Positions 9,711 to 58,300 of a stretch of 64,000 nucleotides of DNA are shown in pieces. Each line of letters begins with the position of its first letter. The first letter of the stretch is position 1. Location of the stretch: assembly GCA_001724265.1 (NCBI GenBank), contig MEDY01000009.1, forward strand, positions 186,001-250,000, written 5' to 3'. Position numbers and translations under genes: made by a program. The DNA comes from Rhizaria sp. SCN 62-66. Taxonomy: Eukaryota. The notes below the pieces were generated by a model that saw only the letters and a list, made by a program, of their open reading frames with translations, had not been told where the DNA came from and searched no databases.

Positions 9711-10421
9711 CCTGCATAGCCACAGAAGTAGACAGGGTAGTAGCAACGAAGATGGGCGAAGTGATCAGTGTGTAAGGCAGCATATAGGTGCGGTGGGGAA
9801 GTGTCGTTTCGTAGGACGGGTGCTCGCGCGCAAAAGACGAAATACGCGTGACAAAGCCGACTTAACGAAGACAAGATTTTAAAAACATAGACATTAACAA
9901 CGTTTCATCCCAACTCTCTCTGAAAACCGATCAGTCAGAGGCTGTTTTGAGCTGCCTAATCGTCGCAAATCTCCCGCTTCTCCGGGACAAGCAGCGACAG
10001 GGCCTTCGCGTCGCTTTTCTCGGGCTGATTGACCACAAATCATTTTTGGCCCGCTGCCAGTCCAAATCATTGTTTGGTCGGACAGCTGGGTCCGTCGTCG
10101 GCAAATGCAGATTTCAAAGATGTATCTCGGCCCACTTAATTCGTTCATGCAGATTCTAAGAGTTGATACTGCTAGAAACTGATGTGCATACTACTCAGCA
10201 CTTGTTTTGAAACAATTTTATTGCGTTATACACAACATGTGGCGTGTCCAATGCAAGCTCGTTTCACTGTTGATTTGTCTCCCCATTGCAATACCCCGCT
10301 CATCTCCGCCGTCATCCGCTCTTCCCGCGTCAGCGTCCACACAACTCTTACAGATACCCCCGCACTGTCCGTAACTCCCCGTTCACAGGGCCGTTCTTTC
10401 GCGGCGGACCAGTTGCGCCCC

Positions 10422-13327
10422 ATGCGTGTCGCAGCCCTCCATCCTCCCCCACCGTCCCCACTGACCAAGCGTGATGTCAGCTGTCGTGACAGAGACGAGC
10501 TCCAGCGTGACAATGCGGGCCCGTCGGCTCGCTCTCTGCGTCCTACCCTGACTTCGGCGCTCTACTCCGTCTCAGTGACAGTCCTGCTGCTGTCGCAGCT
10601 CGCCTCCTTCACGGCCGCCGCGTCCTCTCTCTCCGGCAGCAACAACGCGTACGCCTCCTCATCCGCGGACTCCAGCTCGATGTTGGCGCTCATGGGCACC
10701 GCGCCCCGCGACGCCGCGACCTCGGACGCCGGCGAGGAGGTTGCGTACACGTTCTTCGACTACGCCTCGCTGGCAGTCAAGTTCCTCTGGAACGTCTTTT
10801 ACGTCTGCGGCGCCTTCGTGCAATACTATCCTCAGTGGCGCGCCATCCGCCGCGGCGTCGGCACGGCCTTTTCGCCGCTTGTCTGCCTTATCCTGCTCAC
10901 GGCCAATATCACACGCATCTTCTACTACGTGGGCGAGCCGTTCGACCTGGTGCTGCTGTACCAGAGCATCGTCATGGTGCTCGTGCAACTGGTCGTGCTG
11001 CAGGCCGTTTGCGAGGACAAACTGCGCCGCATCACGGCCCGCGTTCACGGCGGCACTGCGCCCGCGCCCGGCGAGAGCGAGGACAACGAGAACGAGCTTG
11101 GAATCACGACCGGCAATGAGACCGAGGCCGAGCAGTCCGAGGCTGAGTATAATTCTAACAATAACAACAGCAGCAGCTCTATTGTTCATAGCACTGATGC
11201 CACGGCAACTCACGCCGCGGACGGCGCTGACCCCACTGCTGATGCTGCCACCGGCGCTGCGACTGGCGGCGTCTCCGGCACCCGCGGCCACACGACCCCG
11301 GGCGCCTCCGCCTCGGCCGCCGCCAAGGTCGCCGTCGCGATTGCGGCCGATGACCACGAGAGCTCCTCGGACGACGGCGGCGGCGGCATCGCGGCCGGCG
11401 GCGCCAGCTACCGCGCCCCGCGCCAGCCCCGGGTCATCGGTTCCGCGGCGGCCGCGGCGGCGGCGCTGGCGGTGTCTGCGCCGCGCCTGAAGCGCAACGC
11501 TAACAACGCCAGCGGTCACGGCGACTACAGCCACGACGACAACGGCCACACGGTCTCTGTCGCTCCGGCGGCGACTGCATCTGCTGCTGCGGCGGCGGGG
11601 GCGGGCGGGCGGAGCAAGGGCGGCTACGCTGAGTACGTGGACGAAGACAACAGCCACGACGACCGCAGCCAAGGCGGCGCCAAGCCGAGCGCGGTGCGTA
11701 GCGACGGCACTTTAAGCAACAACAGCAGCAATAGAAGCCTTGCATCTGCTGGTTCTAGCTCGAGAGTGACGAGCTCCCGCGGCTCGCAGCAGCCGCAGCC
11801 GCCGCAACACGTGATGTTGCACACGCGGTACCCGTCGTCGGCGCCGTCGTTCACGCAGTCGCTCATCGCGTGCTGCTTCCGCACGCGCGCGCACCTGCGC
11901 CGCGGCTTCAACCCCACCGCGGGCGACTCGGCCTCGGACGGGGTCATCTACGTCGACGCCCCCGGCGCGCACAACAACGATCACGCCCACACCAACAACA
12001 ACAACGCGAACAGCGGCATCGACGGCAACGATGACGACAATGACAACAACACGGAGCAGCGCACGCGCACGCGTATGCTGGCCGTGAGCGCCGTGGACGA
12101 CGGCGTGACGGACCCGCACAACCGCGGGCGCTACTACGTTCGGCCGCCGCTGACCATCTTCACCGGCGGCTGGCGCGGCATCACGGTCAACTTCTGGGCC
12201 TGGGAGCTCTACTCGAGCTACCTGCTGTTTTTGGTCTGCTTCACGTTGGTGCTCACTGTCTTCTCCGTCGCGCTGATGCGGTACGTGGCCTACGTGGTTG
12301 TGCTTGGCTACATTGCGCTCATGATCGAGGCCATGCTCGGCGTGCCGCAGGCCTACAAGAACTGCATCATCGGCACTCGCGGCCTGTCCGCCTTCCTCAT
12401 CTGGTCCTGGCTGCTGGGCGACATCGTAAAGACTGCGTTCTTCATCATGCTCGACGCGCCGATGCCATTTCTCGTCTGCGGCTCCTTCCAGGTCGCCGTC
12501 GACATCTTCATCATGCTACAAATCGCACGGGTATGTCTCTTTTTTATGCATCCAGCATTAACTATTTGTATAACTGAACAACCTTTTGACGCCTCTTGTT
12601 TTAATTATGTCTGACTGGGCATCGTTCATGTTTGTTTCATGACTCACGCCCTCTTCGATCTTTTTCTGTATCGATTCATTTTTAGGACCGTTTCCCCGAG
12701 GCCGCTCGCGAGCGTGCCGCGCTGGCTGCAGCGGCCGCAAACCTCAACCGCAACCAGCAGTCGGACGACGCAGAGGGGGGCGACCGCGAGCGGGGCCCGC
12801 TGGGCCCGGACGAGCAGCCCGAGGTGCAGCTGCCGCGCACGCCCACCATCCACAGCAACGGCAGCAGTGGCGGTGCCGCGGTGGTGGGTGGCGGGATTGC
12901 GCCCCGGTCGCTGTCGCGGCACAGCAGCAACAGCGGCGTCCGGCCTCTCCCCGCTACCACGCCCGCCCACGCGGCCGCGGCTGCGGCGGGTGCGACGACG
13001 CCGTCCAAGTCGGGGCGCAGCCTCAGCCTTAGAGCGCACGGCCACATCAGCGACGAGCCTGCAGCCAAGCCTGCCAAGACCAACAGCAGCGGCAGCGGCA
13101 GCGGCAGCGGTGTCGCCGTGGAGGCGATCGACATGGACTCCGGGGACGTCGAGGAGGGTTTCGCCGCTCTGGCAACCGTGGCCGCCGTCGCCAATACGAG
13201 TTAGGCGCGGGGCACGGCCGCCGACGCTGCTGTGCACGCTGCGCACTCCACGGAGGCGATTGTCGATGCCACAGCGTCTTTGCATGATGTGGGCATTGTG
13301 AGTGGTGAAAACATCGGTGAGGTTTGA
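10422..13327 (+). CDS. PQLC1: PQ-loop membrane protein, SLC66A2/PQLC1-like; exons 10422-12530 and 12686-13327 (13204 if TAG is read as stop)
   Basis: Two PQ repeats: YYPQW...FSPLVCLILLTANITRIF...LLYQS and EAMLGVPQAYKN...WLLGDIVKTAFF...PMPFLVCGSFQVAVD. Intron 12531-12685 (GTATGT...TTTAG). In-frame TAG 13202-13204 is followed by 40 more sense codons to TGA 13325-13327. Start codon inferred. Confidence 0.85.
12531..12685 (+). other. Spliceosomal intron (155 bp) in the PQ-loop gene
   Basis: GTATGT...TTTTTTAG, AT-rich, frame preserved. Confidence 0.85.
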
Positions 13328-20500: not shown

Positions 20501-23500
20501 CCCCACGGCCTTGCGGTAGGCCGCCTTGCTCAGCGCGTCGCCCTGCATCGCGTCGCTGCGCGGGCCGAATGCCGCCACCGCAGTCGTCGCGGACGCGGGC
20601 GCCGCGCTGGCGTCGGCGTCGTCGAGCTGAGACGCGCCGGTGCAGTCCTCGGTGCTGAAATTGCTGTTGGCAGACGCAGCCGTGGTGTTGAGCCGCGCGC
20701 CGTCCACGGTGGCGGCGTAGCTGCCAGCGCGGTGCGCGGCGAGCGGCGTCTGCCCGGTCGCGGTGCGGTAGAAAGACAGACTTGCCGCGGCCGTGGCGGC
20801 GACGGCGGCGGGCACGTCGGGCATCGGGATGCTGTCGTTCAGGTGCGAGAACAGCCGGTGCGCGGCCCCCGCCCCCGCGGAGGCCGGCGTGGCCGGGTGC
20901 GAGGGCGCGTGGCGGGAGTGCGGCGTGCGCGGCGCGGCCGCCGAGGCGGGGTCCGCGCCGGGGCCGGAGGCGTGGTAGCGCATGTCCGCGTCCTTGTCCT
21001 CGTGCTCGGATGAGTTGCTGCCATACGACTGCTGCTGCTGATACTGCTGCTGCTGCTGTTGGTAGTAGTCGTAGTACTGCTGCTCCTGGTCGTCGTCGTT
21101 GCCGTCGCCATATTGCTGCTGCTGATACTGCTGCTGTTGTTGCTGTTGCTGCTGCTGATACTGCTGGTATTGCTGGTATTGTTCTTCGTCGTCATCATCG
21201 GGATACTGGCCTTGCTCGTTGTCGTAGTACGGCGTGCGCTGCAGCTGCTGTTGCTGCTGCTGGTGCCGCTGTTCATAGTCGCCCTCGCCGTCGCCGTCGC
21301 CGTCGGTGGTGTACTGCTGGCCTTGCTCGTCGACCTCACCGAACGGCCGCTGCGGCGCCTGCTGAGGGCCGCGGCGCCGGCCGGCGGCGCTGCCGTGGGG
21401 GCTGAAATATGGGTGCTTACGATGGTTGAAGTAGCCGTCCTCGTCGTCGAAGTCTTGGCGACTCTGATCTGGGTCCTGCTCCTGGCCGTCTGCGTGCTGT
21501 TGCTGCGCGTAATCGCCCTCGTAACCGCAGTCGTAGTCGTCGCCCTCGTCGCCGGCGTCGGCAAAGTCGTAGCCGTTGGCGGCATCGTTGGCGTCGTCGA
21601 CATTCACCACGTCATCGCCTTGACGACCGAGGCCGCCGTCGTCGATGTCATTGTACTCCTCGGTGACGCTCGTAGCAGCCGCTGCAGCCACCGCGGCCGC
21701 GAGCGCGGTAGGCGCGCCCTCCGCCCGCGCCCGCAGCGGCCCGCGCTGCTTGCAGTTGCTCTCCAGCGCAGTGCCATCGCCCGCCGTGGCAGCCGCGGCC
21801 TCAGCCCCAGCCCCAGCCTCAGCCTCGGCCTCAGCCCCGGTCCCGGGCACAGGCACGGCGTGGGAGCTGCTCGACGGGCTCTGGCTCTGGCTCGCGCTGG
21901 CGCTCACGCTGGCGCTCGCGCTAATGTCGGCCAGCGGGCTCGGCTGCGGGCTCACCGTCACCGCGTCAGCCTCCAGCTCGCTCACGGTCGGCGGCTTGAC
22001 TGTCCTCTCCTTGGCGGGCTTGACTTCGATGCCGAGCTCCTCGGGCAGGATGTCGAGCTCGGCGGCAAGCCGGATCAGGTACGACTCGCCGTCAAGGGAG
22101 TCGTCGCTCTCGTCCGCGTCTTTGGCTGCGCTCGCAGTAGAAGAGGGGCTCGCGCTCGTTTGTTGCTGTTGTTTCTGCTCGCCAGGCTCTTGTTGCTGTT
22201 GCTGCTGCTGCTGTTGCTGCTGCTGTTGCTGTTGCTGCTGCTGCTTCTCAAGCTCGGCGAGCTGCTCGGCCTTGCGTTCTCGTTCCTGCTCCTGCCGCTG
22301 CTGCTCGAGCTCCCGCTATTGCAGCTGCCGCTCGCGCTCCTGCTGGTGCTGCTGCGCCGCGCGCTTGGCAGCAACAAGGACGCTCACCTCGGCCTCGATG
22401 CGGCTGCGCTCCAGCGCCACCTCCTCGGCCGTCATGTTCAGGTCGGCGAACGCCCCACTCACGTCGCCGGTAAAGCTGGCGTTGCGGGCGTCGTTCGCGC
22501 CCGAGCCGGCGTTGAGGCTGGCGTTGAGGCTGGCGTTGATGCTGGCGGCGAGCGCGGCGGCGGGCACGGCGGCGGCGGTGCGCGGGGACTGCGCCGGCGA
22601 GGGCGCGAAGAACTCGGGTGACGGCGACGGCGACGGCTGCTTGAACTGCTCCTGTCGCATCTGCTGCTGTTGCTGTTGTTGCGGCGGCTGCTGACGATAA
22701 TCGCCACTGGTGGCGCCGCTGTGGCTCCCGGTGCGGGTCTGTGAGGCTGCGCGCGAGAGCGCGGGCGAGGCCGCGGGTGACGGGGTCGGAGGCGCGGAGG
22801 GCACCGTGAAGGGCAGCGAGGCGGCGGGAATGGCGTGGCTGCGGGCCTGGGAGGTGGCCTGAACAACGCTCGGCACAGGCTGCTGCCGCTGCTGCTGTTG
22901 CTGCTGCTGTTGCTGCTGCTGCAGTTGAGAGAGGGCCTTGGGGGAGCTGACGGCAGGACTTGCCCCCGTGTGGTGCTGATTGTTGTACCGAGGCTGAGGC
23001 TGAGGCTGAGGCTGCTGCTGTTGCTGCTGCTGTTGATGCAGCTGCTGCTGCTGCAGACGGGGATGCTGCATCAGGGCGGGCTGGGTGCGGACGCGGTCAT
23101 ACGCGGCGACTGTGGCCGGTGACGGCATCACGGCAGGAGGCGCGCGCTGGCCAGCCTGCTGCTGCTGTTGTTGCTGCTGGTGGTGACCAGGCTGATACTG
23201 CGGACGCTGACCATACTGGTAATCACCGTAGTCTTGGTCATGCCCGTTCTCATAGCCCTGCTGATACGGCGACTGCTGTTGTTGCTGCTGCTTCTGGTAA
23301 TGATGTTGTTGGCTGTGGTGGTGCTGCTGCGGCGTGTATGGCGTCGCGGGGCCCTGGGTCTGACTGTAGCCGTGGCCGGGAGCGTGGCGTTGAGGCTGCT
23401 GCTGCTGCTGCTGGAAGTATTGCTGCTGTTGAGGCTGGTGGCTGGCAGGGCTGTCGGAGTAGTAGCCTCCGTAGCCGTCATAGCCGTGGTCGTTGTCATT

Positions 23501-24043
23501 TGAGGCGGTTGCAGCTGCATAGTGATGTGGCTGATGCGGATACTGTGGTTGAGGGCCGTTATAACCATGGCTATTGTTGTTGTTGACTCTGTAGCTCTGT
23601 TCATGAGCAGGCGGCAACATCGGCCCATGCTGCTGCTGTAGGTAGTGCTCCTGTTGCTGACGCTGCTGTTGCTGCTGTTGGTAGAGTTGCTGTTGCTGCC
23701 ACTGCTGCTGGTGCTGGTCGCGCGGCGCGTGCACGGGCGCGTACCCGGCCGCGTAGTGCGGTGCGTGCTGCGCCAGTTGCCCGTGTACATGCTGCGAGCG
23801 CACAAACGCGTCGGGCGGCTGCGTGTACGCCGTCTGCACCGTCGCCGCGGGCAGCTGCGCGGCGACGCGGCGCTGCGCGGCCGGCGACGGCGCCGAGAGC
23901 AGCGCATCCAGGTGCGCGTCCAGTGGGTCGTGCTGGAACACCGCAGCCGAGCCCGGGGGCTGCGCGGGGAAGGGGCTGGGACCGGGGCCGGGTCGTGGGG
24001 CCGACTGTGGCGGCGTCTGGCGGGGGCGAGAAGCGCGGGACAT
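17546..24043 (-). CDS. Large Gln/Ala-rich low-complexity protein (about 2165 aa), function unknown, with one in-frame TAG
   Basis: ORF-track ORFs 22316-24241 and 17546-21985 share a frame and are separated only by TAG 22316-22318 inside a Q/E/R coiled coil. The 110 intervening codons have no other stop. ATG 24043 lies at the GC boundary. Ends TAA. Confidence 0.75.
22160..22245 (-). repeat. Poly-Gln (CAG/CAA) tract, one of many in 21030-23710
   Basis: (CTG/TTG)n on the + strand. Confidence 0.85.
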
Positions 24044-41800: not shown

Positions 41801-43334
41801 CGCTGTTCGCGCTAGGACTCGCAAACGGCGCATTACCGCCGCGGACGACGCGACTGTGGGCCATCGTGCGTTCTGCCTCCTCAATCTCGGCGGCTGCGAC
41901 CTCGTGGGGAAGCATGGGCCAGCCGTCGCCGCCGGTCGCGGCCGCCACCGCGACCGTGCGCTCCAGAGTAGCGGTACCGGCGGCCAGGGCCGTCTCACTG
42001 CCCGTGGCAACGCCTGCAGCGCGCATGAACGTGTTGTTGCCGTCGATTCGGAGAGAGGCGTTGACGCAGCCGGTCTCGACTGCCTCCGCCACCACTGCGG
42101 TGGCGGCGGCGGCGGCAGCGGCAGCGGCAGCGGCTGCGGGAGTCACAGCGGCGTCGATCGCAGCCGACGTCGGCGGCGCCGCTGCGAGCGCCGCCCACAC
42201 CGCGTACCGCTTCCGCCTGCTGTGCACAGCGGCCGAGTCCTCCGCAGGGCGGCCCGACAGGCGGCCGTAGGCAGTGGGGGCGGCGCGCGTGTGCGTGATC
42301 ACGAGCGGCGTGTGCGCACTCGTCCACACGATGCGCTCACAGTCACCTGCAGTCGCACTCGCGCTCGAGGACGCGCTGGCATTGGAAACACTGCTGTTCT
42401 GAGCCGCATCAGTGTGAACGAACGGCGGCAGCGTGCTGTCAATAAGCGGGATCGGCTTGAGCGGATCCTCAGGTCGGGAAAGCACGAAAAAGAGCGGCTG
42501 GGTGACCGTGGGCGTCAGCGAGGCCCACGACGCGGACCAGGGCCAGTGCACGGGATGCTCCCGGTACGCCTCCTCCTCGGCCAGGGCCTCTGCCTCTGCC
42601 TCAGCGTCTTCGGCAGCATCAACGTCGGCGCCAGTGTCGTCGGTTTCAGCGCTGTCACTGCGAGGGCGGGTGCTGTGACCGTTGTCCTTGAGCAGCCTGA
42701 CCCTGTCATTGCGCCGAGCGCGGCCCCTCCGCTCAGCCTCAGCGGCCTCCACCGCGGCCGCGTCCGTGGGCATCGGCGCCAGCGGGTCACGCTCGAGCAC
42801 GAGCCCCTGCTGCAGCGGCCAGAGGCGCGCGACGGGGAAAGGCAACCGCGACGCGTGCGTCTCGCCTGAGTCGGGGCACGCAAGCACGAGCCATGTGGCC
42901 GTCACGGCCGCGATCCAGCGCGACGACAGCGGCGAAAACGCCGCCGCCGTGTCCGGGAGCGTCGGGGCCGGGGGCGCGCCAAGCATTGCCCAGGTCGCCG
43001 CGACGAAGGGCTCCTCGGTCGGCGGAGTCAGCTCGTACAGCGGCGGCGCCGAGGGTGGCGCGTCCAGCGCGCGCCATTGCACGCAGGGGCCGCAGATGAC
43101 GAGCTCCTCCATCGCGGCGTGGGGCGCGGTGGGGCTGGAGGAGGACGAGGACGCGGAGGGCGCGTAGGGGTTCGGGTGCAGGTGGTAGGGTGCGTGGACG
43201 GAGCGGGTCGTCGCCGTCTCGCGGCGCCAGAGCGCCAGCACGGAACGCGCCGTGGCTGTGTGCGCCGGGAACGGGGCTGCGTCGCCCAGGGCGCGGAGGG
43301 GCGCAAGCTCCGATAAAGAAATCGGAACCTGCAT
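29874..43334 (-). CDS. APC1: Anaphase-promoting complex subunit 1, greatly expanded (4486 aa), single ORF
   Basis: Ordered APC1 PC-repeat-region motifs: RTLSLPWGRG, AGFLLGLGARGHL, ALGLLYAG, EREGMAMSAAAGLGLVLLG, DVTVAAPAALLAL, PTARWVRRQIP, LALVLSGTADPGAMRLLR, AIGLLTLGAG, TPCLLP. Ends TAA. Confidence 0.85.
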   Translation of the reverse strand: MQVPISLSELAPLRALGDAAPFPAHTATARSVLALWRRETATTRSVHAPYHLHPNPYAPSASSSSSSPTAPHAAMEELVICGPCVQWRALDAPPSAPPLYELTPPTEEPFVAATWAMLGAPPAPTLPDTAAAFSPLSSRWIAAVTATWLVLACPDSGETHASRLPFPVARLWPLQQGLVLERDPLAPMPTDAAAVEAAEAERRGRARRNDRVRLLKDNGHSTRPRSDSAETDDTGADVDAAEDAEAEAEALAEEEAYREHPVHWPWSASWASLTPTVTQPLFFVLSRPEDPLKPIPLIDSTLPPFVHTDAAQNSSVSNASASSSASATAGDCERIVWTSAHTPLVITHTRAAPTAYGRLSGRPAEDSAAVHSRRKRYAVWAALAAAPPTSAAIDAAVTPAAAAAAAAAAAATAVVAEAVETGCVNASLRIDGNNTFMRAAGVATGSETALAAGTATLERTVAVAAATGGDGWPMLPHEVAAAEIEEAERTMAHSRVVRGGNAPFASPSANSVARKGDYSLSHTNTTNTTAVNVIHASHSANAMADDSVAQHRGGGSPRSPLPTVHENGSGSGGSSSHTRSNMAATAGSGNGAVPSLALTTAAATAAAADAADAALAAAEALPAALAGPLIEPAARLFGGGLGPHVQFVCLWRGTLGDDDLDGDDDDELVIGNNSVSASTSAIASASASTSESVDVNLSASDCALLSAPTVFLAVAPPALTLPLWSPAASAVTGAKAPATLADVAAYCINPSAFAESTSAESGGRTDLPLPQPLTFAEYLALCTGADPASATAATAAAVAAAAAPADGDGGDLAAETAAAGASSSLSSAALVVLHEPLLERLTALELAAAPARDSADGAEGGVGMTLLPAFSLTGVLSAFPLPCPAAFAAAAALAGPAVAQGPAAAAAATGLLAPGAGPGASPFDHWFGVVVRDDAIDQSTDSGLQNKIVGERVSCKTRVWVYYGPHRVCELLLTSPELPIASSNPSSSGNALTVGKANSNTELKLQTLNVLAVRPPALSTRTGIALGPLTVAVSVPPTDGSEVLTVGCLQLSLDRFAPIGTSALAATTPSAATLGFALDAVLPPLLAAAVRTAAVAAAAAAARARAFAEALTVAVASGLNDADATAQSLTAVVTALATPQEAIAGLAYVMCEWTYLSNDVCDNNASLRAVDWTDLTTDSHTSTSSYSFAAASVTTEMSGMSPWSALLSSARHATASNSGALPSLTASAHIAAKTTPANAAALRNSVAAAQRAATTNALASVARALSSLSLSEPTATAAAADAPGLALAEATAARAFASLPLLRALLRALSPLLLQTLHCVYDDCLLGAAAPASGSGAGTGAAGRAGLAGEMRPLLLRLSARCYSNSLNCADAAQAAAAERWCAEYLDDAGLSAVGALHGLSCSQSLQGGSVTYAVLNMYTAQAPQPTAMVDAVSSSAEAISESESDSVLRAVLGEAHMPALISFADIAMSTDSDLPVRPVPVPHPLAPLPPLPPRILSYCTIAAPPRSATTAALTITVAPSSAASAADASTVAATELTVSSNVPAPAPTAIAADAAAFNDWLRARDRAAVAAHGHLASNTLEVAQLYSEGQDPWLALFSVFPVSSPLCALSRKTLHIAFLTARATAAASANGANAVAPEQWTWAGHVTARAASLACTVLTRASTSATRDAAVAAHAKSARRVSGIDALDSPMFGQRQQQSLRRRRRSSLLLSTPSLRVGLTPAGHRGAAAATAAAMHAAAMGARSPSFMHPHLHSATPQQTAHGRLAVHGHSAAHAHAAGPVPTLASEFAHSHAPGQAQGGMFTPAPRQRAGFGFTPASAAGPSAQGSHRLSGGPVGGGTPFLFTPAPARGSAQTARRASGGAASTLSGSGLAAGGLAVPQSAGVFAAALPRQVPHSPFGLPASTPLRAAPTSAASAAAASAAAMSAAAVAASFHAHCAASNQNQAGDNSVVMLRSPRPAVVATPTAAARRRAGTTQPVGSASIAASPAVTATPQLLPIPAATAVRGRPTVTLTVTLPSPFSPAPAAHTASGPAPQSPLALGSPVRAGAGMRGTVAAAALGAAAARALALGPLAVSLASAAAFNATAQDSAVTGADASVIMEGNEEDDDDDDEQEHARNERAFALAVEDDEDGDELDFFGLSLPAVTVGVEDEPCDDDDDDRNDDGGQNSGTDNSQKQTMSDDATVGSPRARTLTSPRARTGANAFGARKRKSLTFGAHNAAGPMTPRTMGNTMFAAAVQPAAAAAAAHASTVTSSKGNAFAGLGGRAFGASAAAPHAPSGLAPTGLAPAAPTISLALTASPSVRLNLKRTPLPALPAALLTRDPSLSVYKPTDEELADLVAPTILIAPPTLSPPRPAQLAASTAQVAAASAPVCISVPVPATATCFVPSAPALARWLLATCVAERLTAADVAGALPPPVAAAAAAALAVCAGASPSSRANTTQAGGSADPLASFEPALLAGRLDYILMRRLRHSSLPAAAAAVAAARAACSAQARAAARAAAAAMLANAAEQLAAHGIPATVVAAVKKEASRLTRIRTARRRAVKAKSGAVTSASAVVVKTVAIRNMSDEPQSDSDSDALEQVEGYDDADDDAATAGATEADAAAWSALAITDPLMWGAHADAFARARTDRALPFLATAAPLSAYSGDAAGSISIPAVSDDAVMLGLPDPSDPYAASAPLAEGAATAHFHRIGTQATASALASAAAATASSATGASGAVAIGSATTLAGAFEPAAAASARAGAGAPAAAAAAGGLWLRSLLPPAPPASDLEGLLSARRACAHGLCPTLTAAVEASLSTTRLPTVTVPRASATDAETLAKALKDRVILAGLRTLSLPWGRGAYTLGTAAPPALRLTALPNPGFALSALTPQLGAGEVTKWDDLRVSAGEVDAVPSLLQGWSVAVSYWAAPGWEALCAAAASKLAHSSAAVAVAQKALSSQNSESSNDQVTRKQRRRSSLLLPSFAANTVDSDAAASRPTAPTSAPSATATTMRVTNLAPHPSSSVLLRSYLAALAAHRHSLALFASAMRDVTARPPSPAFLAGFLLGLGARGHLRATPSDLLLAAPLNDPIALAATVTALAASHFGTGSGLVARQIYLRAPERLPMGAALDTLRHPLLFAAVPFALGLLYAGRGSGPAAELCLHRLMTAQGARAPLGSASANGATVLFSGGGGGVSAAAAAAAASLGGMLGSQREREGMAMSAAAGLGLVLLGLGDDVAGANAANNDAESDAASDATLSVRGRSQQQRKQRQKQQQQQAQQQRTLGAWSVGLRALLLKCTGLNANAAAHTVANTGVGAGADADAAAAAATAAAIATGAASPATAAYASAPIDVTVAAPAALLALTLAHLATAPAPAALALRATVGAPVDPRTAAAGIAATTWHRVLARALIAGPAPAAADSKEAGAGVWVEPTARWVRRQIPDAVAMSVVEIAAPFEDDGSDYTILSASYNGLAGAPECADTLSSVDSALSSGFSPNAARQLYLQSLSAALLALGVTHAGTGSVKAARLLAHYLSALLALRRQDAKDIDADNAAYNADASDNGDDDDSEESKARPVGESTKPVSLTADAAAAVRAINASASPYARSGAIGSSGLFPPTHSGTGAGAKDWRAVDWVSGAPLLKPRQLQPAAAAQSDLGWEWEQLSATEHGNNNTLVLSLPTLPGCSHERSLWSANARARASIWLAWARVCRVPVPTRADLLAQHRGVLPAQAAQAHSGMNANDDFYYAAALTLWARTHLPPLPRARLSGPGADSTTLAAAVASASLALALVLSGTADPGAMRLLRAARYAPLPSSIPRNSAELNEDHVSALHSAHGAAAAAIGLLTLGAGRAALRPAFSRCPTSGVVLPCRATMATALLTALPPWGGPRGLGAVPVLLRTVLPLATVTRWVCTVDAATGAPVSLPIAVSIKPGAGCGGEVTAEGFRKIALKTPCLLPPLEHVTELNVAAPGYLPLNLYPGDKSADFELIMHRRVIFVQAVPTLAGADADDSIVCAPSSGSVTEAASGAATTEDSTVSWLANTTLVQSTTTVAATARVSFSPQLQASIDHLGRRALPLLALTVARALPPQSANTSSTSSGDALTVAINSANAVGAADVAIALTSYRQRLSEWAAECRALCGDSTAAAVPSKAKSKPTPKFAISNGDSIPLRTRVLTLTTPGLSLISLRGSTTTALALAPPAPASLLLTALPATASTCAADSGPIAAPPLAPSLLPSPLAASQALVRWALLTIACVAEARALVNAAHAASRARAAATAARSTMSAEIVALARASGAYANAALPAPPALPSFAAGMVPTDTPPSVAAVSALKALVEDNDAAVGALGAALLPRNLRDALSQALQYLLTGREVDDLLLSSIRSAKMMLRKATHKEGFNLSRNASFASALCACACRYHDLQPWLQPVSAAATARLSEITRARTIAVKLRLGGYDGKSLRTEYENATAHGAAGNAASSGRWALMSAMMWPRMTREQRSMLLHCLLMCDENVDQN

Positions 43335-45103: not shown

Positions 45104-45958
45104 GCGCGCTAATTGATCACTAGTGCAGCTCAATCTCGCTCTCGCATGAATGTGCGCGGAGCATATATGCCGCGCTTGTGCTGAGTTGTGTGTCCGCACA
45201 ATTTGCAGCTTATGCGGCACTGTTGCAGACCTGCGCAGTCGGGAGTCCCGTCAGACCCGTTGCCAGAGACAACGCCCGTCTACTCAGCTTCGTAACGCCG
45301 CGCGGTGCTCCAACATCTCCGCTCCTATAACTGAGAACTGGCCCGTATACACGCGGTTCTCCAAAACCCTCACCTCAATGTCTCAATAGAGCGCGCGCGC
45401 GCGATTGCCGCGCATGCGTCGCTGCGGCGTTGCCCACTCGTTCCTAGCGAGCAGTCGGGTGAAGGTATTTATTGCAGTATTTAGCCAGAACAAAGTGACA
45501 CACGTGAAACTTCACTATATGTACACGATAATACGTCTGTATATCTGTGCTATGTTTCATCATGTTGCTATTATGTTTTCGTTATAACTTCATATTCGTT
45601 TACACAGTAAAACAAACGCTTCCAAAAACCTAAAAATGACCTTAAATGGGAGATAACTCCCGCTACATACATTATTATATTCACAACACTAACCATTGTT
45701 TTTTTAAATGTGCTTATGTATTATTTGTAGTGATTTTCTATTTTATCGGTTCTTGTGCGTACAAACGCGTTTTATGTCCTAAAAAGTCGCAAGTGCAACA
45801 GTTCGTTAACGTAGCTACGTTTGCATTCCCTAGATATGAACCTGTTTTGCTCTTTCATTCGGCTCGAAGCTAATCCCCAAGTGCGTGATTTGTGTTGCAT
45901 TTGTGAGTCCGTCCTCGCACCTCAGTTCTATGGTTGTGGTTAGTTGCAGGCGTTGCGC

Positions 45959-46634
45959 TTACTTCTTGTTGCCCTTGGCAGCCTTCTTGGCAGCCTCCTT
46001 CTCGCGCTTCTCCAGCAGCCCTTTGAAGGGCATGCGCATGTCGTAGGCGTCCTCGCCGTCGGCGTAGTAGCCCTCCTCGAGCTTGGTGATCTCGTAGCCC
46101 AGCGTCTGGCTGTAGAGGTGGTAGGCAGCGATGTTGCTCTTGCGCACGTGCAGCGACACGTAGTGCGCATCGAACACCTGCTCCATCTGCGCCTGCGCGG
46201 CACGCATCAGCTTAGTCGCGATGCCGAGCTTGCGGTGGGTGCGGAGAACGGCGAGCGAGGTGATGTGGCCGTGCGGGTCCTCCTCGTCGTCGTCCTCCTC
46301 GGCCATCTTGCCCAGGACGTAGCCGACGATCTTGCCGCCGTCGTCGGCCACGTACAGCAAGTGCGGCCACGCAATGATGTGGTAGATGAAGTAGCGGAAC
46401 TGGTAGTTCTCGGGCAAACACAGCAAGTTGCAGTGCTGCATCTCGATCAGGTCCTTAATCTGTTCAGGGCCAGCAAGGAGTGGTTAAATATGCCGAGAAA
46501 GAGCGATGTAGCGGGTGAGCACGGGGAATGGGGAAAGTCGCACTTTGAAGAGGAAATACAAGGGTATAACATCCGTCAAGAGGGTGCGCAGAAATGCACT
46601 GAATACGTACTGTGGCAGGGCGAATAGAAACCAT
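45959..46634 (-). CDS. NAA10: N-alpha-acetyltransferase 10 (NatA catalytic subunit, ARD1); exons 46634-46611 and 46459-45959
   Basis: Spliced [70 protein letters not shown]. Intron 46610-46460 (GTACGT...AACAG). Ends TAA. Confidence 0.96.
46460..46610 (-). other. Spliceosomal intron (151 bp) in NAA10
   Basis: GTACGT...AACAG; removal restores the conserved N-terminus. Confidence 0.92.
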
Positions 46635-46948
46635 ATTATATGATTCTCCGATGCGGGGGCAAGGCACAAGACTTCAAACAAAAATCCGCAACATGACACT
46701 CTCGCCAAGCCAGTCCAAGTCGTAGCCGTTCTGCGACCGTCGATGAGGGAGCAATGCAAATCATATCTCAGCGAAGGCCTGCCCCACAGATTCACAGTTA
46801 TTGTATTTGTTTTGTATGTCTTTTATGCGCATTTATTTTAAAGATCTAGTCCACAAGTCGATATTTTGCTTCTTTACGCGCGCAAATCTCACCTTCGTTG
46901 AGCATCTCTGCGCTTGTATCTGCCTCCTTAGCCTGCCACATGCGCCCA

Positions 46949-47051
46949 TTACAGCCTCAACAGCGATGAGTGCAGCCGCTTGATGGCGGCCACCATGTGT
47001 GCCTGCTTATTATTGCAGAGATGCGTTGTCTTTGCCGTATCTTGTGCAGCC

Positions 47052-47122
<71 letters not shown>

Positions 47123-49192
47123 TTGTTGTTGCTGGCTGCCGCTCTGGGACGTGCCACCTGTCGTTGTCACCACCACAGACGTTGTCGCTTCCGTGAGGCC
47201 GAGCTCCTCCAGGACCGTGAGCAGCAGCCTCACGTCGCTCTTGGCCTGCGCCAGCGCTGCCCGGCCCACGGTCACCGGCTCCACGGCCGGCACCGTCACC
47301 GTGTACCGCGAGTCGCCAGGCAGCGCAGCCGCTGACAGCGAAGCCACCGGCAGTGCAGTCGCTTGCTGACTGGAGACTGTGGCTGAGGGCTGCGTTCGCG
47401 CGGGCGCTGTCTTAGCCGCAGTTGCTGTGAATCCCGGCTGCGGCGTCTCTGCAGCGCTCTGTGTCTGCGCCCACGGCTTTGCGGCAGTGACGGTCGCGTC
47501 AGGCGCGGCGCTTGGCGCGGCGCTCGCAGACCCGCTAGACTTGGGCTGGATGAGGGGAAGGAACGCCTCGGCGATCTTCTCTGCCGCCGCAGTCTTAGCC
47601 GCGTCGCTGGTGCTTGGGACACTCATACGCGAGTCTAGTGACCGCAACTTGCCAAGGACGGTCTTTTTGCCGGGGATGCGGCAGTTGGGGTAGGGCTTCG
47701 GCGGCGGAAGCGACTTCTTCGCCTTACCGCTGCAGTTGAGCGCATCGAGCCTAGTGGCTGCAGCGACTGCGGCTGCCGTTGGGGTTGCAGTAGCGGGAGA
47801 AGCGGACGCGGTCGCTGACTTCGTGGTGCCCTCAGACGTCGCACCTGCAGACTCCTTTACAGGCGCGGTCGAGGTGGACGCGGAGGCGCTCACGGTTACA
47901 CTGCGCACGATGGGAACACAAGGGCTCGCACTCTGGATCTGAATGGTCTGTGTCCCGTTGACGCCATCCCACTTGTAGCAGACAGTGTTCTCGACAGTCT
48001 TGGAACGGTACAGCTGGAGGTTGCAGCTGCTGAAGTCCACGTTCGCAAACAGCGACGCCGCTGCAGCAACGGACTTCACTCCCGTTCCCGTGGTGGACGT
48101 CAGCGGTGTCGCACCTGCAGCGACACCGGACGACCCATTTGCGCTGTGCACAGTGCTTGCTGAAGGAGCAAAGGCTGAAACTAACGGCGTGCTCACTGTA
48201 GGCTTGCTTACTGTTACTGCAGGCTTGTCGACTGTAACTGCGCTTGCTGGCACTGCAGACTTCCCTGCAACCATCGCAGTCATGCCCACAGTTATATCGA
48301 GAGGGATCACTACCTGAGCAGCTGGAGGAGGAGTCGCGGCAGGCGTTGCCTTTGTCACAACAGGCGTGCTGCTGATGCTGCCGCTTGTGCCGCTACTGTA
48401 ATTGCTCGCAACATCGGCCTGACTGGCAGATCCGTTGCGTGTTGAAGTCGCGGCCACACCGGCCGCGCTGACGGGGGCTGCCGCTGCGAGCCGGTGCTCT
48501 GCAGGCACGCAGCTAGCTAGCTTGAACGTTGTGCTATACTTGCGTTTTGCACTGCCTGTTTGCGTTGAGGAGGCTATTAGGCCCGCGACTGAGTCGGTGT
48601 TGCTTCCAGGTGTTCTCGCAACATGGTCACCTGTGATCTAGGGACAGTCCTCGTTGGCCAATGCTGTTGCCGCATGACTAGCGAGCGGGGATGCCTCTTT
48701 CAGGATGTTGCAAGCTGTGCCGATATCTACTATAGGCAGCGTACGCTGGACGGCGTTCACCGCGGCCACTGCTGGCGTCGAGGCCCTCGTCGCGAACGCA
48801 ACCTCGACGGGAGCGACTTCCTTGGTCACAACGCTCTCTAAGCTGGCAAGCCGAGTAGACCCGGTCGTGGGGAGAATCAAGAGAGGTAGGCTTAGCGGAA
48901 CAACAGTGGTTGATGCGATACAAGAGTCAGTCTTGAAGATGTTGAAGTTGCTAACCTTAGTCCGATCGATGATTGCGAAGTCGAGGTCGGACCAGTCACT
49001 GCCGGACTCGGGCAGATCGCACTCGTATTTGGCGACCGCATTGCTACACTTGCGGGCAGCCGCCGGCGAAGTAAGATCGCTGTTGTTGGAGGGAGTGAGC
49101 AGCTCGAAGTCGCAGAGCGTATCACTGGAGGCTGTGCCGGTCGGCGAAGGAGGGGACGTCCCCACTTGAAGCGTCGTCGAAGGCAACGACAT
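46949..49192 (-). CDS. Ser/Thr/Ala-rich hypothetical protein (about 747 aa) with one in-frame TAG
   Basis: ORFs 48638-49225 and 46949-48508 are in one frame, separated only by TAG 48638-48640 plus 43 sense codons. ATG 49192 lies at the edge of AT-rich sequence. Ends TAA. Confidence 0.65.
47052..47133 (-). repeat. Coding microsatellite (CAA/CAG)n(AAC)n: poly-Gln and poly-Asn
   Basis: (TTG)n(CTG)n on the + strand. Confidence 0.9.
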
Positions 49193-52092: not shown

Positions 52093-52634
52093 GAGTGACT
52101 TGATCGAAGTCTGTCACCGCTTCTTAAGATGGTAAGTATGAGAAAAACATGGCGTCTTTGTTTGAAGTGTCGTAAGTGATCGTTTTTTTCCAGATTATTC
52201 GTGGGTCCTGCTCTACTGAACGACGTTTCAAGTCATACAAATGAGACATATTCTCATCTAAAGTAAGATCGTACTTCCAATGTGGAACCATATAAGTGAA
52301 CTTGGTTGCTGAAACTCTCTCATCATCCCTTATGAACCTTTTTCCGCTGGAAGAGATATTGCATTGCTGCTTTGTCACATCGCTGAAATGACCGTGACCT
52401 GGTGAGGCACGTTCGCCTTCAGGCATTCTCTGGATTTTGAAACCCCATATCTTAAGCCTTCATTAGGCAGCGTATTTGGCGTGTGTACAAGTCAAAACCA
52501 GATATGTACATGAATTTTTGATTTAATCCGGTGTTTTATTTCAAATAGTTTGACAAAACACTGATGCTACGGTTTTATAATACGCTGTAACTGCTCCATA
52601 TCTTAATCTCACTCAGCGTCCTCCGTAGGACGTG

Positions 52635-55139
52635 ATGAACGAGCTTCAGCTGCAGTACAAACTCTGCTCGCCTTACGTTGTCCGCTGTCTCGGTGTCATG
52701 GACACAAATGCTCTCACGGGCAAAAGCAGTGTTTCGACAGTGCTTAATGACAGTGGTGTTGGACAAAGTGACGAAAGCAACTTTTCGCTTGTGATGGACT
52801 ACATGGATGGTGGGTCACTGAACAAGCTTCTCACTCACCCTGACTACCGCACAGTGTCAAGCGAGGCGCGTGTCTGGTTAGTGCAACAGGTAGCAAACGC
52901 TGTGCATGCGCTAAGCAAGGAGAACATTGTTCACGGCGACATCAAGTCCTTCAACTTTCTTTGGGATGTTGTGGACAACAATACGCACCCAGTCGTCAAG
53001 ATCACAGACTTTGGTAACGCGAAGCTGCATGCGACGATGCAGAACATGTCTCTCTCCTCCTTCCCGCGTACGGCTCACTAACAAAAGAACACGCCCTAGT
53101 GACTGAGCATCTCCCACCAATATGTCAACTTGAGGAAGCTTAACACGTATCCCCTTGAATCATACTTCTATTCAATATTTTAATTTGCACTCGTAGATGT
53201 GCCAGACTCTGTCTCGGGCACGCTGGCATGGATGGCACCGGAGTTGCTGAGTGGACAGTCCCGTCATAACGCAAAATCGGACGTATATGCACTTGGCATG
53301 ACCTTGTACGAAATCGCCTTTGGCGTAAGGCCGTTTGAGCACTTCAGTTGCAGTGAGATCTCAGCCATGATCATCAACGGTCTGCGCCCCACCATCGATC
53401 TGAACGACTACAACGAAGAGGCGCAACCGAAGTTTTACCCTGGTACGGCACCGCCATCATCGCTGATAACACTCATCAGCGAGTGCTGGGACGCAGACCG
53501 AGACAAACGTCCCAATATTGAGGACGTCGTAAGCCGGCTACAGGCCATCCGTTGCGATGAGCGCGCTGCACGTGGCATGATGCTTAAGGTGCTTCGTCGC
53601 GATCTGAATCAGCAGTCACAACACGAACATTCACAGTCATCAACAGTATCCTCGTCTATTTCCTTTACCAGCGTTATCACAACGGACACACCCATCAATA
53701 GGCCGGCAGCGCCGCTGCAGCTTTACCAGCACAAGGACGTGAAGACTGGACCGGTACACTCGGTACAGACTGTTCCCGAACAATCGGCAGCACCCGCGCC
53801 GCCCCAGCAAAAGGTGTGGAGCCCTTTACCTGCTGGCTGTAAGCTGGACCGACGCCACATGTCGCAGCCGGTCTCTACGCATCGTGCGGATAAAGCAGAT
53901 AACCAAAAAGTGCCTGAGCGATACAGCATGGTCATGTCCCAGCCTATTGCGACGGTCAAGCCAATGCTAGCAGAGCGCGATGCGTTGGACCTGCCGCAGC
54001 GGACACCGCCCCCGTCGGACGAGGCGGATGAGCTGTTCCAAGTCGGACTCGCAATGCTGGAGACGTTACCACATGGTTCGAGCCCTCAAAGCGCGTTCGA
54101 GACCATCAGCGATGCTGCCAAGCTCGGTCATCCTGGCGCTATCTGCAAAATGGCATAGTACTACCTGCAGCCCGAATTCGGCCGCTACAGCGTTTATAAC
54201 GCTAGGAAGTGGATGAAGAGCTTGACTCTGCTTAGTGGAGAGGGCTGTTACCAGTATGGAGTATGGCTTATAGCGCGTGATATCGACTTTGATGAGGCTG
54301 AACTGTACTTACGTTGCGCAAGTTTTGCAGGGTATCGGAAAGCGGATGACACGCTTGCGGCACTGTTTACACTTCGTGTTACGCGTAGTATAATGGCGAA
54401 GCTTGGAAGTGAGCAGAACAAAGATCTAGCTAAGCGGTTGCGGCGCGGACTGATGCGCCGATGTCCGGTCGCATACTACATGTTAGCCCGTGCAGAGTTC
54501 GATGGTCTTATTGACATTAAACAAAATCGGAGCTCAGGTTTTGAGATTCTACTGGGCGCTGGAGAACCATTGGATGGCGATGAGTTTTACGGGCCTGCGG
54601 CAGCGTTCTACGCCCACTTCAAGAACTCAATGCCACATTGGAAGGCTGCTGCAGAAGCAGGAGATAAGCATTCACAATTCATGCTCGGCAACCTTCTCAT
54701 CGAAAATGGCGATTACGCAACCGGACTGCTGTGGCTCCGTGAAGCGGCCACGCGTGAGTACGATGCTGCGTTGGTTCGGCTGGCAGAGATTAGCTGCGAA
54801 GGCCTCTATGGGCAACCCCAAAGCAAGGGCGTCTCCATTCTCTACGTAAAACGCGCGTACGCAACTGGTGGTCCTGATGGAGAAGCGGAATTTGCAATGT
54901 ACTCCGTGCTCGGTACAGGTGTGAAGAAAGATCAACAGTACGGCGCGCGCAAGCTACATGAGATTGCCTCAGACTCAAAAAATAGCAGGGCAATGTACAA
55001 CTTGGCTGTGTGCCATTTAAATGGATGGGGTGTCAGGCGCGATGTTAGTGCCGCCAAGTTTTGGTTGACTCGGATTCGAGACTATCCGAAGGCGTCACGT
55101 CTTTTATGCGACCTATGTTGCTCTAAAACTACCACATGA
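52635..55139 (+). CDS. TKL-type protein kinase fused to Sel1-like repeats; intron 53068-53196; in-frame TAG 54156-54158; 5' end unresolved
   Basis: LVMDYMDGGSL, HGDIKSFN, KITDFG, GTLAWMAPE, KSDVYALGM, CW...KRP. Phase-1 intron GTACGG...CGTAG restores the frame. Sel1-like repeats AAKLGHPGA, AAEAGDKHSQFMLG, AMYNLAVCHLNGWGVRRD. Ends TGA. Confidence 0.8.
53068..53196 (+). other. Spliceosomal intron (129 bp) in the kinase gene
   Basis: GTACGG...CGTAG, phase 1, joins the DFG exon to the APE exon. Confidence 0.88.
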
Positions 55140-55344: not shown

Positions 55345-58300
55345 TCACTGCTGTTGCACGCCGCGATGCACCGCCTGCGGCCGCATCAACGGCCTCTACA
55401 TGGCCCCGGCGCGGTTCTGGTCAGCGCCCTCCCACACCACGGGCGGGCCCCCCGGCGCCGTGTCGCGCGGAAATGGCGTGAAGAGGTAGCCCAGCAGCTC
55501 AGTCAGCACCGCGGGGTCCGCCAGCGGGTTGCCGTCGAAGGCGGCGCGTAGCGGGGAGTGTGCGCCGAGCCGCGGATGAAGCCCGTGTGCGAGCGCGGCC
55601 ATGGCCAGCTCGGCGTCGCGCAGCTCGTTGGTCTTGAGCGTCACGTCGATCACGGTCAGTGGGACCGTCGTCGCGTCCTTGGTGACGTACTGCCTCGGTT
55701 GCTGCGACTGGTGCGGATGCTGCTGCTCTAGGCTCGGAAACGACAGAGGCGCGGGAACGCGGACGGAGGTAATCCACGCGTTGCGGAGCAGTGGTGGGAG
55801 ATCGACCGACGCGCGCGCGGACTGCGGGTCGAACGGCGTCAAGGGCACCGACGCATGCACAAAATCAAACTCGAGGAGGCTCGTGTTGCGCATGACCGCA
55901 CGCGTGAGGGCCAGAATGCCGGCCTCGCGCAGGTGCGAGCGCGTGAGGTCAATGCGCCGGAGCCGCGTGCGCTCGATGGCGGGGGCGAGGATGTGGACGA
56001 CGGAGCGCTCGGAGAGGTGCGTGCGCGAGACAGAGAGACTCGTCAAGAAATCGCTTAAAACGAGCGAGGCGAGCGCCTGCATACCGGCGGAGTCGAGGCG
56101 AGAGGCATCTAAAGAGAGCGTGCGGAGGTTGGTGGCGCAAACAAGAGACTCTGCGACGAAGTTGAACGAAGTGCCGGTCAAGCCGCACTTGGAAAGGTTC
56201 AGCCGTGCCAGCGGGATCGTGGGACGCCGGGAATATGCGAGGTGGAGCGCCGCACCAAGAGCGGGACCGAGCTTGGGATTCATGGATAAGTCGAGCGACA
56301 GCAGGGACGAGGTATGCAAAAGCAAACTTGTCAGCGCAAGACTCGCCTGAAAATCGACGAATCACAAAAATTAAGCGAGGATGTGGAAAAGATAAGAAAA
56401 TTGAGTTAGGACAACGTGTCAAAATACAGTTCAGGATTATAGTAGAACATTTAAAATAGCGTATAATAAAACCTTGTCAAGTTTCATACCTCTTCGGTGA
56501 TCCCGTTATCCGCTAAATGCAGAACCTTGATCGAGTCACCCATCTCCACTGCCCTCATTATAACGGCAGCGCTGAGCCCTTCAAGTTCATTCTCGTTAAG
56601 GTTAAGCTCCGTGAGTCCGCGGTTCCGGGCAAGCCCGGGCGCGAGCCCTCGTGCCGCGCGCGCAGTGATGTTCATCTGACCCATGTCGAGCCTGCGCAGC
56701 GCCGCGTTGACCGTGAGCGCGTCACCTAGCACGCGACCCGCGTCAGCGGTCATGGCGTTGCGGCACATGACGAGCTCCTGCAGCGCGTTGTTGCAGCCTA
56801 AAGAGCGCATCAGAGCGAGCATGCCGCGGGAGAGGATCTTGCACGAGATGATGTTGAGGTGCTGCAGCGATGATGAGGCCGACGGGTCAGAAAGGAAACC
56901 GGCCAGCGCGACGGCGCCAGCGTCGCCCAGGGGGTTCGAGCTCAGATTCAGCGACCGAAGCGCGGCGAGCGCCGCGGGCGCGGAGGGCGTGATGGCAACA
57001 AGCGGGGACAGTAGCCACGCAGGCGGAGTCGAGAGCTCGTACGGGTATTGATACTTGGACTTGTTCTGTGTCTTACCATTCGCACCGCTGCCAAGTCCGT
57101 TCTCATGAGCATCAATCGCGTTGCCATAAGCAACTGCATGGCCGCCCGCATTATGACCATGGCCCAGGTCAGCAGTGTCGTCGCCCTCACTGGCGTCGAG
57201 AGAAAAGTAGTCGTCTTGTTTCTTGACCCGGGCGTTCGCCGCCGCTGCAGCCGCAGCCAGTCCCCCTGCGCCACCCGCGCCCGCGGCCGTCGCCGCACCA
57301 GCAGCAGCAGCGGCGGCCTCAGCAGCCTCGCGGCGCTCGCGGCGCTGGTTGGCGAGCACCTGCGCCCACGTCTCGCGGCACCGCAGCCTGAGGCGCGCGG
57401 TCGCGGACACTGCGTCCGCGGCGGCCGAGGTCGACAGCGGTAGCCGCTCGGCCGAGAGGAACATGGGGGGGTGAGGCGCGAGCGCGGAGCAAAGCGCATC
57501 GTTCGCGCTCGTGTTGATCACCAGAGGGCTCGCGGCGCCGTGCGCGCCGTGCGCAGGCGCCGAGCACAGCGAACCGGTGCAGTCGGTGGGCGCGTGCGCG
57601 TGCGACGCCGTGCCTGCGGCGGCGGCGGTCGCGGCGGCGGAGGCCGCGGGGTGCGCCGGTCTGTAGCGGTGCGTGCGCGTGAGACTGGCCGGCGCGGGCG
57701 TGAGCGGAAACAGAAATGACTGGGAGAGGCCGTGCAGATAGTCGGCAAGCAAGGGCTCGGCAGCGGCAGCAATGGCAGAGTCATCGCGGCTTCCGTCAAC
57801 GCTGAACACGGAGTTGGGAGCTTTGCTGCCATCAAAGTCGAAGCCCTCATCGTCAATGTCAGAGTTATTATCGCCGTCGTCGTCGTCGCCGCAGTCGCTG
57901 TTACAGCAGCTGCAGAAGCCTTCCTGGTCACAGTCGTCATCGCCGCAGTCAGTCTCGTCGGCGTCCGCGCTCTCGGCCTCCCCGTGGTCGCCGCGGCCGC
58001 AGAGCGCGGAGGACGTCGCTTCGTCGGCGCCGAGCTCGTCCCAGTGCCACGCCAGCTCCTCGTCGTCCTCCTCGCGCTCGCACTCCCACCTCGGCAGCCA
58101 CAGCGGCGCGCCCCCGCTGTCATGCTTGCCCGTTACAACAGCCGTGCTCGCGGGAACCGTCGAGATCGCCCGCATGCGCGCGGTAAGGGACAGCGGCTGC
58201 GCGTCGAACCAACCCGCGTTGGCGCCCATGCGCAGCGGCGGCAGCACGAGCCCGTCCGCGGTGTCCGCGTCGGCGACGTCGTTGTGCGTGTCACCCACAG

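Follow-up and report, generated by a model that had tools for sequence, protein, structure and literature searches.

A kinase gene with Sel1-like repeats carries an in-frame TAG

The DNA analysed here is a stretch of 64,000 nucleotides of contig MEDY01000009.1 (Rhizaria sp. SCN 62-66), referred to below as the window. It carries a gene for a protein kinase followed by a Sel1-like repeat region, and the reading frame of this gene is crossed by a TAG codon at 54156-54158 (+), the presence of which was confirmed in the window sequence. An earlier note on this DNA had quoted the peptide around the codon, and re-reading of the frame from the sequence gave the same result, AAKLGHPGAICKMA preceding the TAG and YYLQPEFGRYSVYNARKWMK following it. 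This codon is the sole stop between 53199 and the TGA at 55137-55139, and it is preceded by 319 codons and followed by 326. The open reading frames (ORFs) 53199..54158 (319 aa) and 54213..55139 (308 aa) share one frame, the ATG at 54213 lying 19 codons 3' of the TAG, as had been stated. The 326 codons past the TAG contain no stop; when the segment was shuffled 2000 times, every shuffle had at least one stop and the mean was 16. Its two remaining frames (54159..55136) hold 11 and 24 stops.

The kinase domain is distributed over two exons (Table 1). The first is 57-60% identical to the proteins P0167 and P0168 of the protein collection that was searched, the homology beginning at VMNELQ. The putative intron behind it contains an in-frame TAA at 53079-81, the Pfam kinase match picks up again at profile position 156 in the ORF on its 3' side, and the ORFs of the relatives break at the same point, P0163 and P0016 starting there and P0167 and P0168 ending there. 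The motifs HGDIKSFN, DFG and MAPE are legible in the translations, in agreement with a kinase C-lobe (PF00069 / PF07714). Between this lobe and the Sel1-like region lies a low-complexity, disordered linker of about 180 residues. The Pfam Sel1 family (PF08238) is found with 49.3 bits in the part after the TAG and with 41.6 bits in the read-through protein (cut-off 30.7), and the last repeat is the only one that it recognises strongly in this gene. No paralogue of the gene was found inside the window by tblastn.

The two halves are also recorded as separate proteins. The exact split products, P0011 (319 aa) and P0012 (308 aa), occur in the protein collection on 4 and 5 contigs respectively, which are possibly non-independent; the split at the TAG is therefore not specific to this assembly. 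No joined product (355-1131 aa) across the TAG was found among the 5.8 billion clusters of the collection, nor among its representatives.

Relatives align across the TAG

The family was found by an exhaustive search of the representatives, after the Sel1 part had given only relatives at 24-35% in a word-indexed search. P0163 (619 aa) extends without interruption over the complete exon, beginning at the intron boundary and reaching the C-terminus, and P0161 (378 aa) and P0164 (139 aa) likewise cover the position of the TAG. In tblastn each of them gives a single same-frame match across the codon (residues 4-599 of P0163, 2-363 of P0161 and 1-139 of P0164), so that the alignment with related kinase-Sel1 proteins suggested in the earlier note has yielded three proteins that pass through the TAG without a gap. 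The residue facing it is glutamine in P0164 and arginine in P0161 and P0163, and among the five in-frame TAGs of the window described below this is the only alignable site. The part of the exon downstream of the TAG is 41-47% identical to P0161 and P0162. Since the relatives align codon for codon and ungapped, no intron lies at this position and, judged by these alignments, the TAG is exonic and stands in for one sense codon. A protein query for the DNA of the relatives in prokaryotic genome contigs gave 49 pattern matches, none of which was confirmed.

Some of the relatives are themselves broken. P0016 (328 aa) ends three residues before the TAG column and P0162 (316 aa) resumes 19 residues later; the longest contig is 126,856 for both, a relative split within the same repeat. 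P0164 and P0019 also stop abruptly within conserved sequence. If the stops of P0016, P0164 and P0019 were TAG, further in-frame UAGs would follow.

The repeat solenoid is continuous in a structure model

An AlphaFold model was calculated for the residues from 54006 on, with a 10-row family alignment and the TAG modelled as X (mean predicted local distance difference test, pLDDT, 89.9; predicted template-modelling score, pTM, 0.85). The model has 21 helices and the X is its residue 51, just past the helix 43-49, with three helices before it (5-19, 28-39 and 43-49) and 18 after it. In this model the alpha/alpha repeat solenoid is continuous through the TAG site. The argument that a true stop would break the Sel1-like region is thus upheld by the model, in which only 3 of the 21 helices would stay with the kinase part.

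The finer claim that the TAG lies within a Sel1 pattern stands in part. It is in agreement with a reading by eye, with the structure model and with a match to human SEL1L, in which the first repeat of that protein is aligned across the X (6.4 bits, not significant alone), but not with Pfam: the earlier note had proposed that a Sel1 hidden Markov model should span the codon, and a 77-residue piece across the TAG had no Pfam match at E<=10. We regard the missing match as a matter of sensitivity, since the uninterrupted relative P0164, which covers the same stretch, is also unmatched.

In a Foldseek search of the PDB, the top 11 matches of the model were Sel1 or SEL1L proteins (E 5e-10 to 3e-8). 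Their template-modelling scores are low (0.25-0.49), as expected because superhelices differ in curvature. A sequence search of the PDB with the kinase-Sel1 protein found SEL1L at E 5e-14. The solved Sel1-like solenoids of Oxalobacter formigenes (6ok3) and of human SEL1L (8ket/9og0) are built of all-alpha two-helix repeats as in the window protein, and further structures of the same fold are those of Legionella LceB (8sxq) and LpnE (6deh), E. coli c5321 (4bwr) and Helicobacter HcpC (1ouv). With these structures Foldseek gave E values of 5e-10 to 6e-6 and a probability of 1.00; their identity to the window protein is 12-22%, and none of them is fused to a kinase.

Other in-frame TAGs in the window

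The window is a eukaryotic nuclear region in which coding blocks of 60-78% GC, with a GC content at third codon positions (GC3) of 0.68-0.95, are separated by spacers of 33-47% GC. Other TAG cases were found by asking which pairs of long ORFs join if one stop is read as sense, and four were obtained besides that of the kinase-Sel1 gene (Table 1). In all, five genes of the window carry an in-frame TAG, the cases at 22316, 48638 and 54156 being strongly supported and those at 13202 and 55396 suggestive. No comparable join of real genes by reading TAA as sense was found in the window. The sole join by TGA (10182..12614 with 12639..13301) was rejected, its second part showing a non-coding GC pattern.

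Table 1. Coordinates of the parts of the kinase-Sel1 gene and of the further in-frame TAG codons of the window
Feature	Position	Strand	Observations
Kinase exon, alpha-C helix to activation-loop start	52629..53067	+	Pkinase profile positions 46-153 of 263; HGD, DFG present
Putative intron, 129 nt, GTACGG...TAG, phase 1, AT-rich	53068..53196	+	Splice sites inferred from sequence
Exon part 1: kinase C-lobe, low-complexity linker, first three solenoid helices	53197..54155	+	Pkinase profile positions 156-259; AlphaFold model
In-frame TAG	54156..54158	+	Opposite Q (P0025/P0164), R (P0013/P0161), R (P0015/P0163), no gap
Exon part 2: remaining 18 Sel1-like helices	54159..55136	+	Open over 326 codons; Pfam Sel1; AlphaFold model, Foldseek
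TGA, likely true terminator	55137..55139	+	Next 150 nt GC 0.38; another stop 3 codons on
In-frame TAG in a 2235-codon frame (645 + 1589)	22316..22318	-	Inside one GC-rich block, 17535-24169
In-frame TAG in a 769-codon frame (206 + 562)	48638..48640	-	Inside one GC-rich block, 46914-49177
In-frame TAG 16 codons before TGA, neighbouring leucine-rich repeat (LRR)-like gene	55396..55398	-	48 nt after: GC 0.71, GC3 0.88
In-frame TAG 40 codons before TGA, last exon of PQ-loop gene	13202..13204	+	48 nt after: GC 0.79, GC3 0.81

The TAG at 22316 lies in a Q/E-rich segment (...ERERQLQ-TAG-RELEQQRQ...) with no AT-rich spacer. Past it, the next in-frame ATG is 445 codons on, and the GC contents of the interval at the three codon positions (GC1 0.77, GC2 0.40, GC3 0.81) form a coding pattern; the TAG at 48638 is followed by its first in-frame ATG after 119 codons. 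A segmentation by composition only places both codons deep within single GC-rich blocks. In the genes with the TAGs at 13202 and 55396, GC-rich and GC3-rich sequence runs on to the TGA, and AT-rich sequence begins only past it (at 55345-47 in the latter gene). The base after the five TAGs is G, C, A, T and A, which reveals no common context. Apart from that at 54156, all the TAGs lie in low-complexity sequence that is unmatched in Pfam. In the 22316 gene, the ORF behind the TAG is recorded on 3 contigs.

The judgement that the TAG at 54156 is not an ordinary gene end is thus sustained, as the relatives align through it and four more genes of the window show the like. The same observations lead away from the view of the codon as a trait of one gene; they point instead to decoding throughout the organism.

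Two side observations concern the TAG-bearing genes. At 17549-21985 (-), P0171 and P0172 are identical in 1469 of 1471 residues, P0172 being on another contig (8,068 nt); it may be an allele or come from a closely related strain, and population data for the TAG sites may thus exist. A Gln homopolymer of 18 or more and an Asn run of 10, encoded mostly by CAG/CAA and AAC/AAT, are found in TAG-bearing genes at 46952-47100 (-) and 22180-22260 (-).

Stop codons and composition at gene ends

The 18 defined gene ends of the window use TAA 10 times, TGA 8 times and TAG not once, the TAGs at 13202 and 55396 being taken as internal. Assuming that TAG makes up one fifth of the terminators, the probability of this result is 0.8^18 = 0.018. 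The count was made from a gene-by-gene table. An automatic best-frame count per GC block was dropped as too noisy: it chose antisense shadow frames in short blocks and counted terminal stops at block edges. The TGA at 14846 was left out, as the Pex gene to which it belongs continues into a RING-finger exon.

In the 48 nt past 18 of 19 terminal TAA or TGA codons, the GC content is 0.23-0.58. The corresponding values after the TAGs at 13202, 22316, 48638, 54156 and 55396 are 0.79, 0.69, 0.52, 0.54 and 0.71, with a GC3 of 0.81-0.88 after those at 13202, 22316 and 55396. TAG occurs 5 times per 17,675 codons in the annotated frames (0.28 per 1000); off-frame, TAG and TAA are equally common (114 and 117).

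ORFs ended by TAG on the opposite strand (45944..46627 and the partner of 55396..56325) were rejected as antisense shadows, their GC1 being lower than their GC2. GC1 and GC2 are swapped in the ORFs antisense to the genes for uracil phosphoribosyltransferase (UPRTase; 8727-9473 +), a GNAT acetyltransferase (45944-46627 +) and an LRR protein (55601-56350 +). Such shadow ORFs would be reported by standard ORF callers.

Probable decoding of UAG as an amino acid

We consider it fairly probable, with appreciable doubt, that UAG is read as an amino acid in this GC-rich, intron-poor eukaryote and that UAA and UGA terminate. The ribosome would then insert an amino acid at UAG and, with the codon at 54156 translated, 53197-55136 would form one continuous exon. 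In its product, a disordered linker would connect a TKL-type kinase C-lobe to a Sel1-like solenoid with about 21 helices, which presumably serves in protein binding and in the targeting or regulation of the kinase. The inserted amino acid may be glutamine; this is a guess from precedent, from the Q of one relative at the column and from the single transition that separates TAG from CAG. As one reading covers all sites, it is more economical than a separate story for each of them, in which the TAG at 54156 would belong to a pseudogene, those at 22316 and 48638 to coding-like introns and those at 13202 and 55396 to GC-rich starts of untranslated regions (UTRs); such a set of explanations is possible but less economical. 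In the proposed low-usage state, the frequency of UAG would be about 0.3 per 1000 codons, and most of its occurrences would fall in protein regions that are disordered or evolve fast. That this would be a UAG-only reassignment in a non-ciliate GC-rich eukaryote, caught at an early stage of low usage and independent of those in Iotanema, exLh and the ciliates, seems to us an even bet.

Several points weigh against the translation of UAG. Only 64 kb were examined. The TAGs at 13202 and 55396 may in fact terminate their genes, with a 3' UTR that begins with unusually GC-rich sequence; 2 of 18 genes would then end in TAG, and the argument from the missing TAG ends would fall. A true stop with such a sequence behind it is present in the window: the TAA at 8802-8804 (-), at which the UPRTase profile ends exactly, is followed by GC 0.69 and is the sole exception among the terminal TAA and TGA codons. 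In-frame spans of the form GT...TAG can be drawn by eye at 22316 (72 nt) and 48638 (93 nt). The sole TAG with proof by homology, that at 54156, sits in the best candidate for a pseudogene. TAG is very rare and none of the five is at a conserved position, so that the sites do not point to one amino acid. ARAGORN found no tRNA with the anticodon CUA in the 64-kb window, which holds no eRF1 gene either, and Rfam gave 0 matches over its whole length. The defects of the kinase-Sel1 copy, set out next, belong on the same side.

A possible decaying gene copy

The strongest alternative, although we hold it to be unlikely, is a pseudogene: a nonsense change, for example CAG to TAG, in a decaying, 5'-truncated copy of a multi-copy family, the other TAGs being explained separately. 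The kinase N-lobe, with its Gly-rich loop and beta-3 lysine, is absent, and positions 1-45 of the kinase profile are unmatched. P0168 has a Gly-loop and a VALK motif directly joined to the part that the window copy retains; residues 1-53 of P0168 had no match in the whole window (best E 1.6). The homology starts abruptly at VMNELQ, upstream of which come a stop and then AT-rich sequence with stops in all three frames. The GC3 of the gene (0.50-0.63) is lower than that of all other genes of the window. In Tajima relative-rate tests the window copy carried more unique changes than the relative in two comparisons (43:25, p=0.029; 31:15, p=0.018); against P0017 the counts were 19 and 14 (p=0.38), and three comparisons of relatives with each other were balanced. 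The window copy keeps 58 of 77 columns conserved in the family, compared with 58 of 68 for P0161 and 58 of 63 for P0162 (leave-one-out). Moreover, the ORFs of the relatives are fragmented as well. Taken alone, these sequence features favour a decaying copy.

On the other side, the disablements found in 794 codons (145 plus two split-codon bases, 319 and 326) amount to one stop and the 5' truncation. The earlier note had held that further disablements would speak for a pseudogene; the missing N-lobe is formally one, but there is neither a frameshift nor a second stop, and no shuffle of the downstream part was free of stops. A drift of GC3 from about 0.8 to 0.5 after inactivation should have brought many stops and indels. 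A pseudogene also leaves the TAGs at 22316 and 48638 and the missing TAG terminators unexplained. If UAG is translated, the split gene becomes one kinase-solenoid protein, which raises the question of a pseudokinase scaffold or a dying gene; whatever UAG means, the sequence of the copy without an N-lobe suggests that it may be a catalytically dead pseudokinase scaffold or a decaying gene.

A remnant of the N-lobe was looked for on the minus strand, where an AT-rich ORF of 100 codons (52124-52426) contains GHGHFSDV, similar to GHGGFSRV of P0168. The candidate is unproven: its local score of 30 against the Gly-loop of P0168 was matched by 126 of 5000 shuffles, another frame scored 28, BLASTP gave E values of 2 or worse and Pfam nothing. 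This ORF lies just upstream of the truncated kinase, a position suggestive of a rearranged remnant. Mutation of the repeat-induced point mutation type was also rejected, as the (CA+TG)/(AC+GT) index of 1.22 is similar to that of the neighbouring genes and shows no signature. When the flanks of the gene were searched for repeats or a mobile element, only three short repeats at chance level were obtained.

Less probable readings: removal of the TAG from the message, readthrough and error

It is much less probable that the TAG is removed or altered before translation, either because an in-frame intron is spliced out or because the mRNA undergoes U-to-C editing. Three inferred introns of the window all end in TAG (52626-28, 53194-96 and 12683-85), and the spans that can be drawn at 22316 and 48638 are multiples of three. 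These spans are coding-like, unlike the inferred introns of the window, which are AT-rich and stop-bearing; the 72-nt span at 22316 has coding periodicity (GC2 8/23, GC3 19/23). At 54156 the relatives align residue by residue on both sides with no gap. As for editing, we know of no nuclear U-to-C editing on such a scale.

Programmed readthrough of this gene, with UAG as a normal stop made leaky by local signals, would account for a frame kept for 326 codons past the stop; it is nevertheless very improbable in our view. The bases after the TAG (TACTAC, in the context TAG TAC TAC) do not fit CARYYA, a known readthrough context. The fold of the 120 nt that begin with the TAG is no stronger than in shuffled sequences (z = -0.52), 62 of 200 of which fold at least as well, and the five TAGs are without a common context. 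An error of sequencing or assembly at a sense codon, for which one base change suffices, is the least probable explanation, given the exact split products on 4 and 5 contigs, the lack of a joined product in the collection and the four similar TAGs elsewhere in the window.

Other genes of the window

The genes recognised in the window include Pex2/Pex12, PQ-loop, ankyrin, LRR, UPRTase, GNAT acetyltransferase and Aarsd1-like genes. The N-terminal region of Pex2/Pex12 (13814-14848 +) and a C3HC4 RING finger (14914-15588 +) are on ORFs about 65 nt apart and probably represent two exons of a single peroxin gene; the TGA at 14846 would consequently be intronic and no terminator. A search with the Pex2 protein gave, besides the window's own protein, one relative at 49%. 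An ORF of 4486 codons at 29874-43334 (-) has weak matches to APC1 and to proteasome/cyclosome repeats (E 0.04-0.1) and, if it is APC1, would be greatly enlarged by low-complexity inserts. Within this giant ORF, ARAGORN reported a tRNA-Pro (cgg) of 101 nt at 31744-31844 (-); no Rfam tRNA reached the gathering score there, and the call is probably false.

Comparison with known systems

The order of a kinase followed by Sel1 repeats is known from early-diverging fungi of the genus Actinomortierella. Kinase and Sel1-like families are highly expanded in Rhizophagus, according to the excerpted text of PMC8647823. In A. ambigua (KAG0253371.1 and KAF9976048.1) and A. wolfii (KAG0243606.1), an N-terminal kinase of the Tyr/Ser-Thr type precedes the Sel1 repeats, with an identity to the window gene of only 30-33% over the matched stretches. 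Canonical Sel1 repeats number 10-12 in these proteins (307-427 bits); the window family has one repeat recognised by Pfam and a long degenerate solenoid. The window copy, unlike them, has a disordered linker of 180 residues and lacks the N-lobe.

A UAG-only stop-to-sense nuclear code is listed as NCBI table 15. If UAG is a sense codon in the organism studied here, gene models made with the standard code are cut at every UAG, and the protein collection already contains such halves (P0011, P0012 and P0171). If true, a GC-rich case with few UAGs would bear on the capture of stop codons and on whether usage rises only after a change of release-factor specificity.

In the excerpts of Panek et al. 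(2017, PMC5304391) on which we draw, UAG encodes Gln in Iotanema spirale and Leu in the rhizarian exLh, the argument being that none of 71 and 119 gene ends is UAG; UAG makes up about 8% of the Gln codons in Iotanema. The same excerpts name only these two lineages, as of 2017, for UAG-only reassignment outside the ciliates, and a UAG-only stop-to-sense code is reported for phyllopharyngean ciliates in the part consulted of PMC11687900. No GC-rich non-ciliate with UAG-only reassignment was found beyond the cases of PMC5304391 in the literature consulted in part, which is no proof of absence from print.

The window resembles Iotanema and exLh in having in-frame UAG in several genes and none as terminator, with termination by UAA and UGA. 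It differs from them in scale, the 64 kb of genomic sequence having provided 18 gene ends and 5 UAG codons. UAG is far rarer in the window than in Iotanema, with 5 UAGs compared with 705 CAG and CAA codons, and the genome from which the window comes is GC-rich, unlike those of the ciliates.

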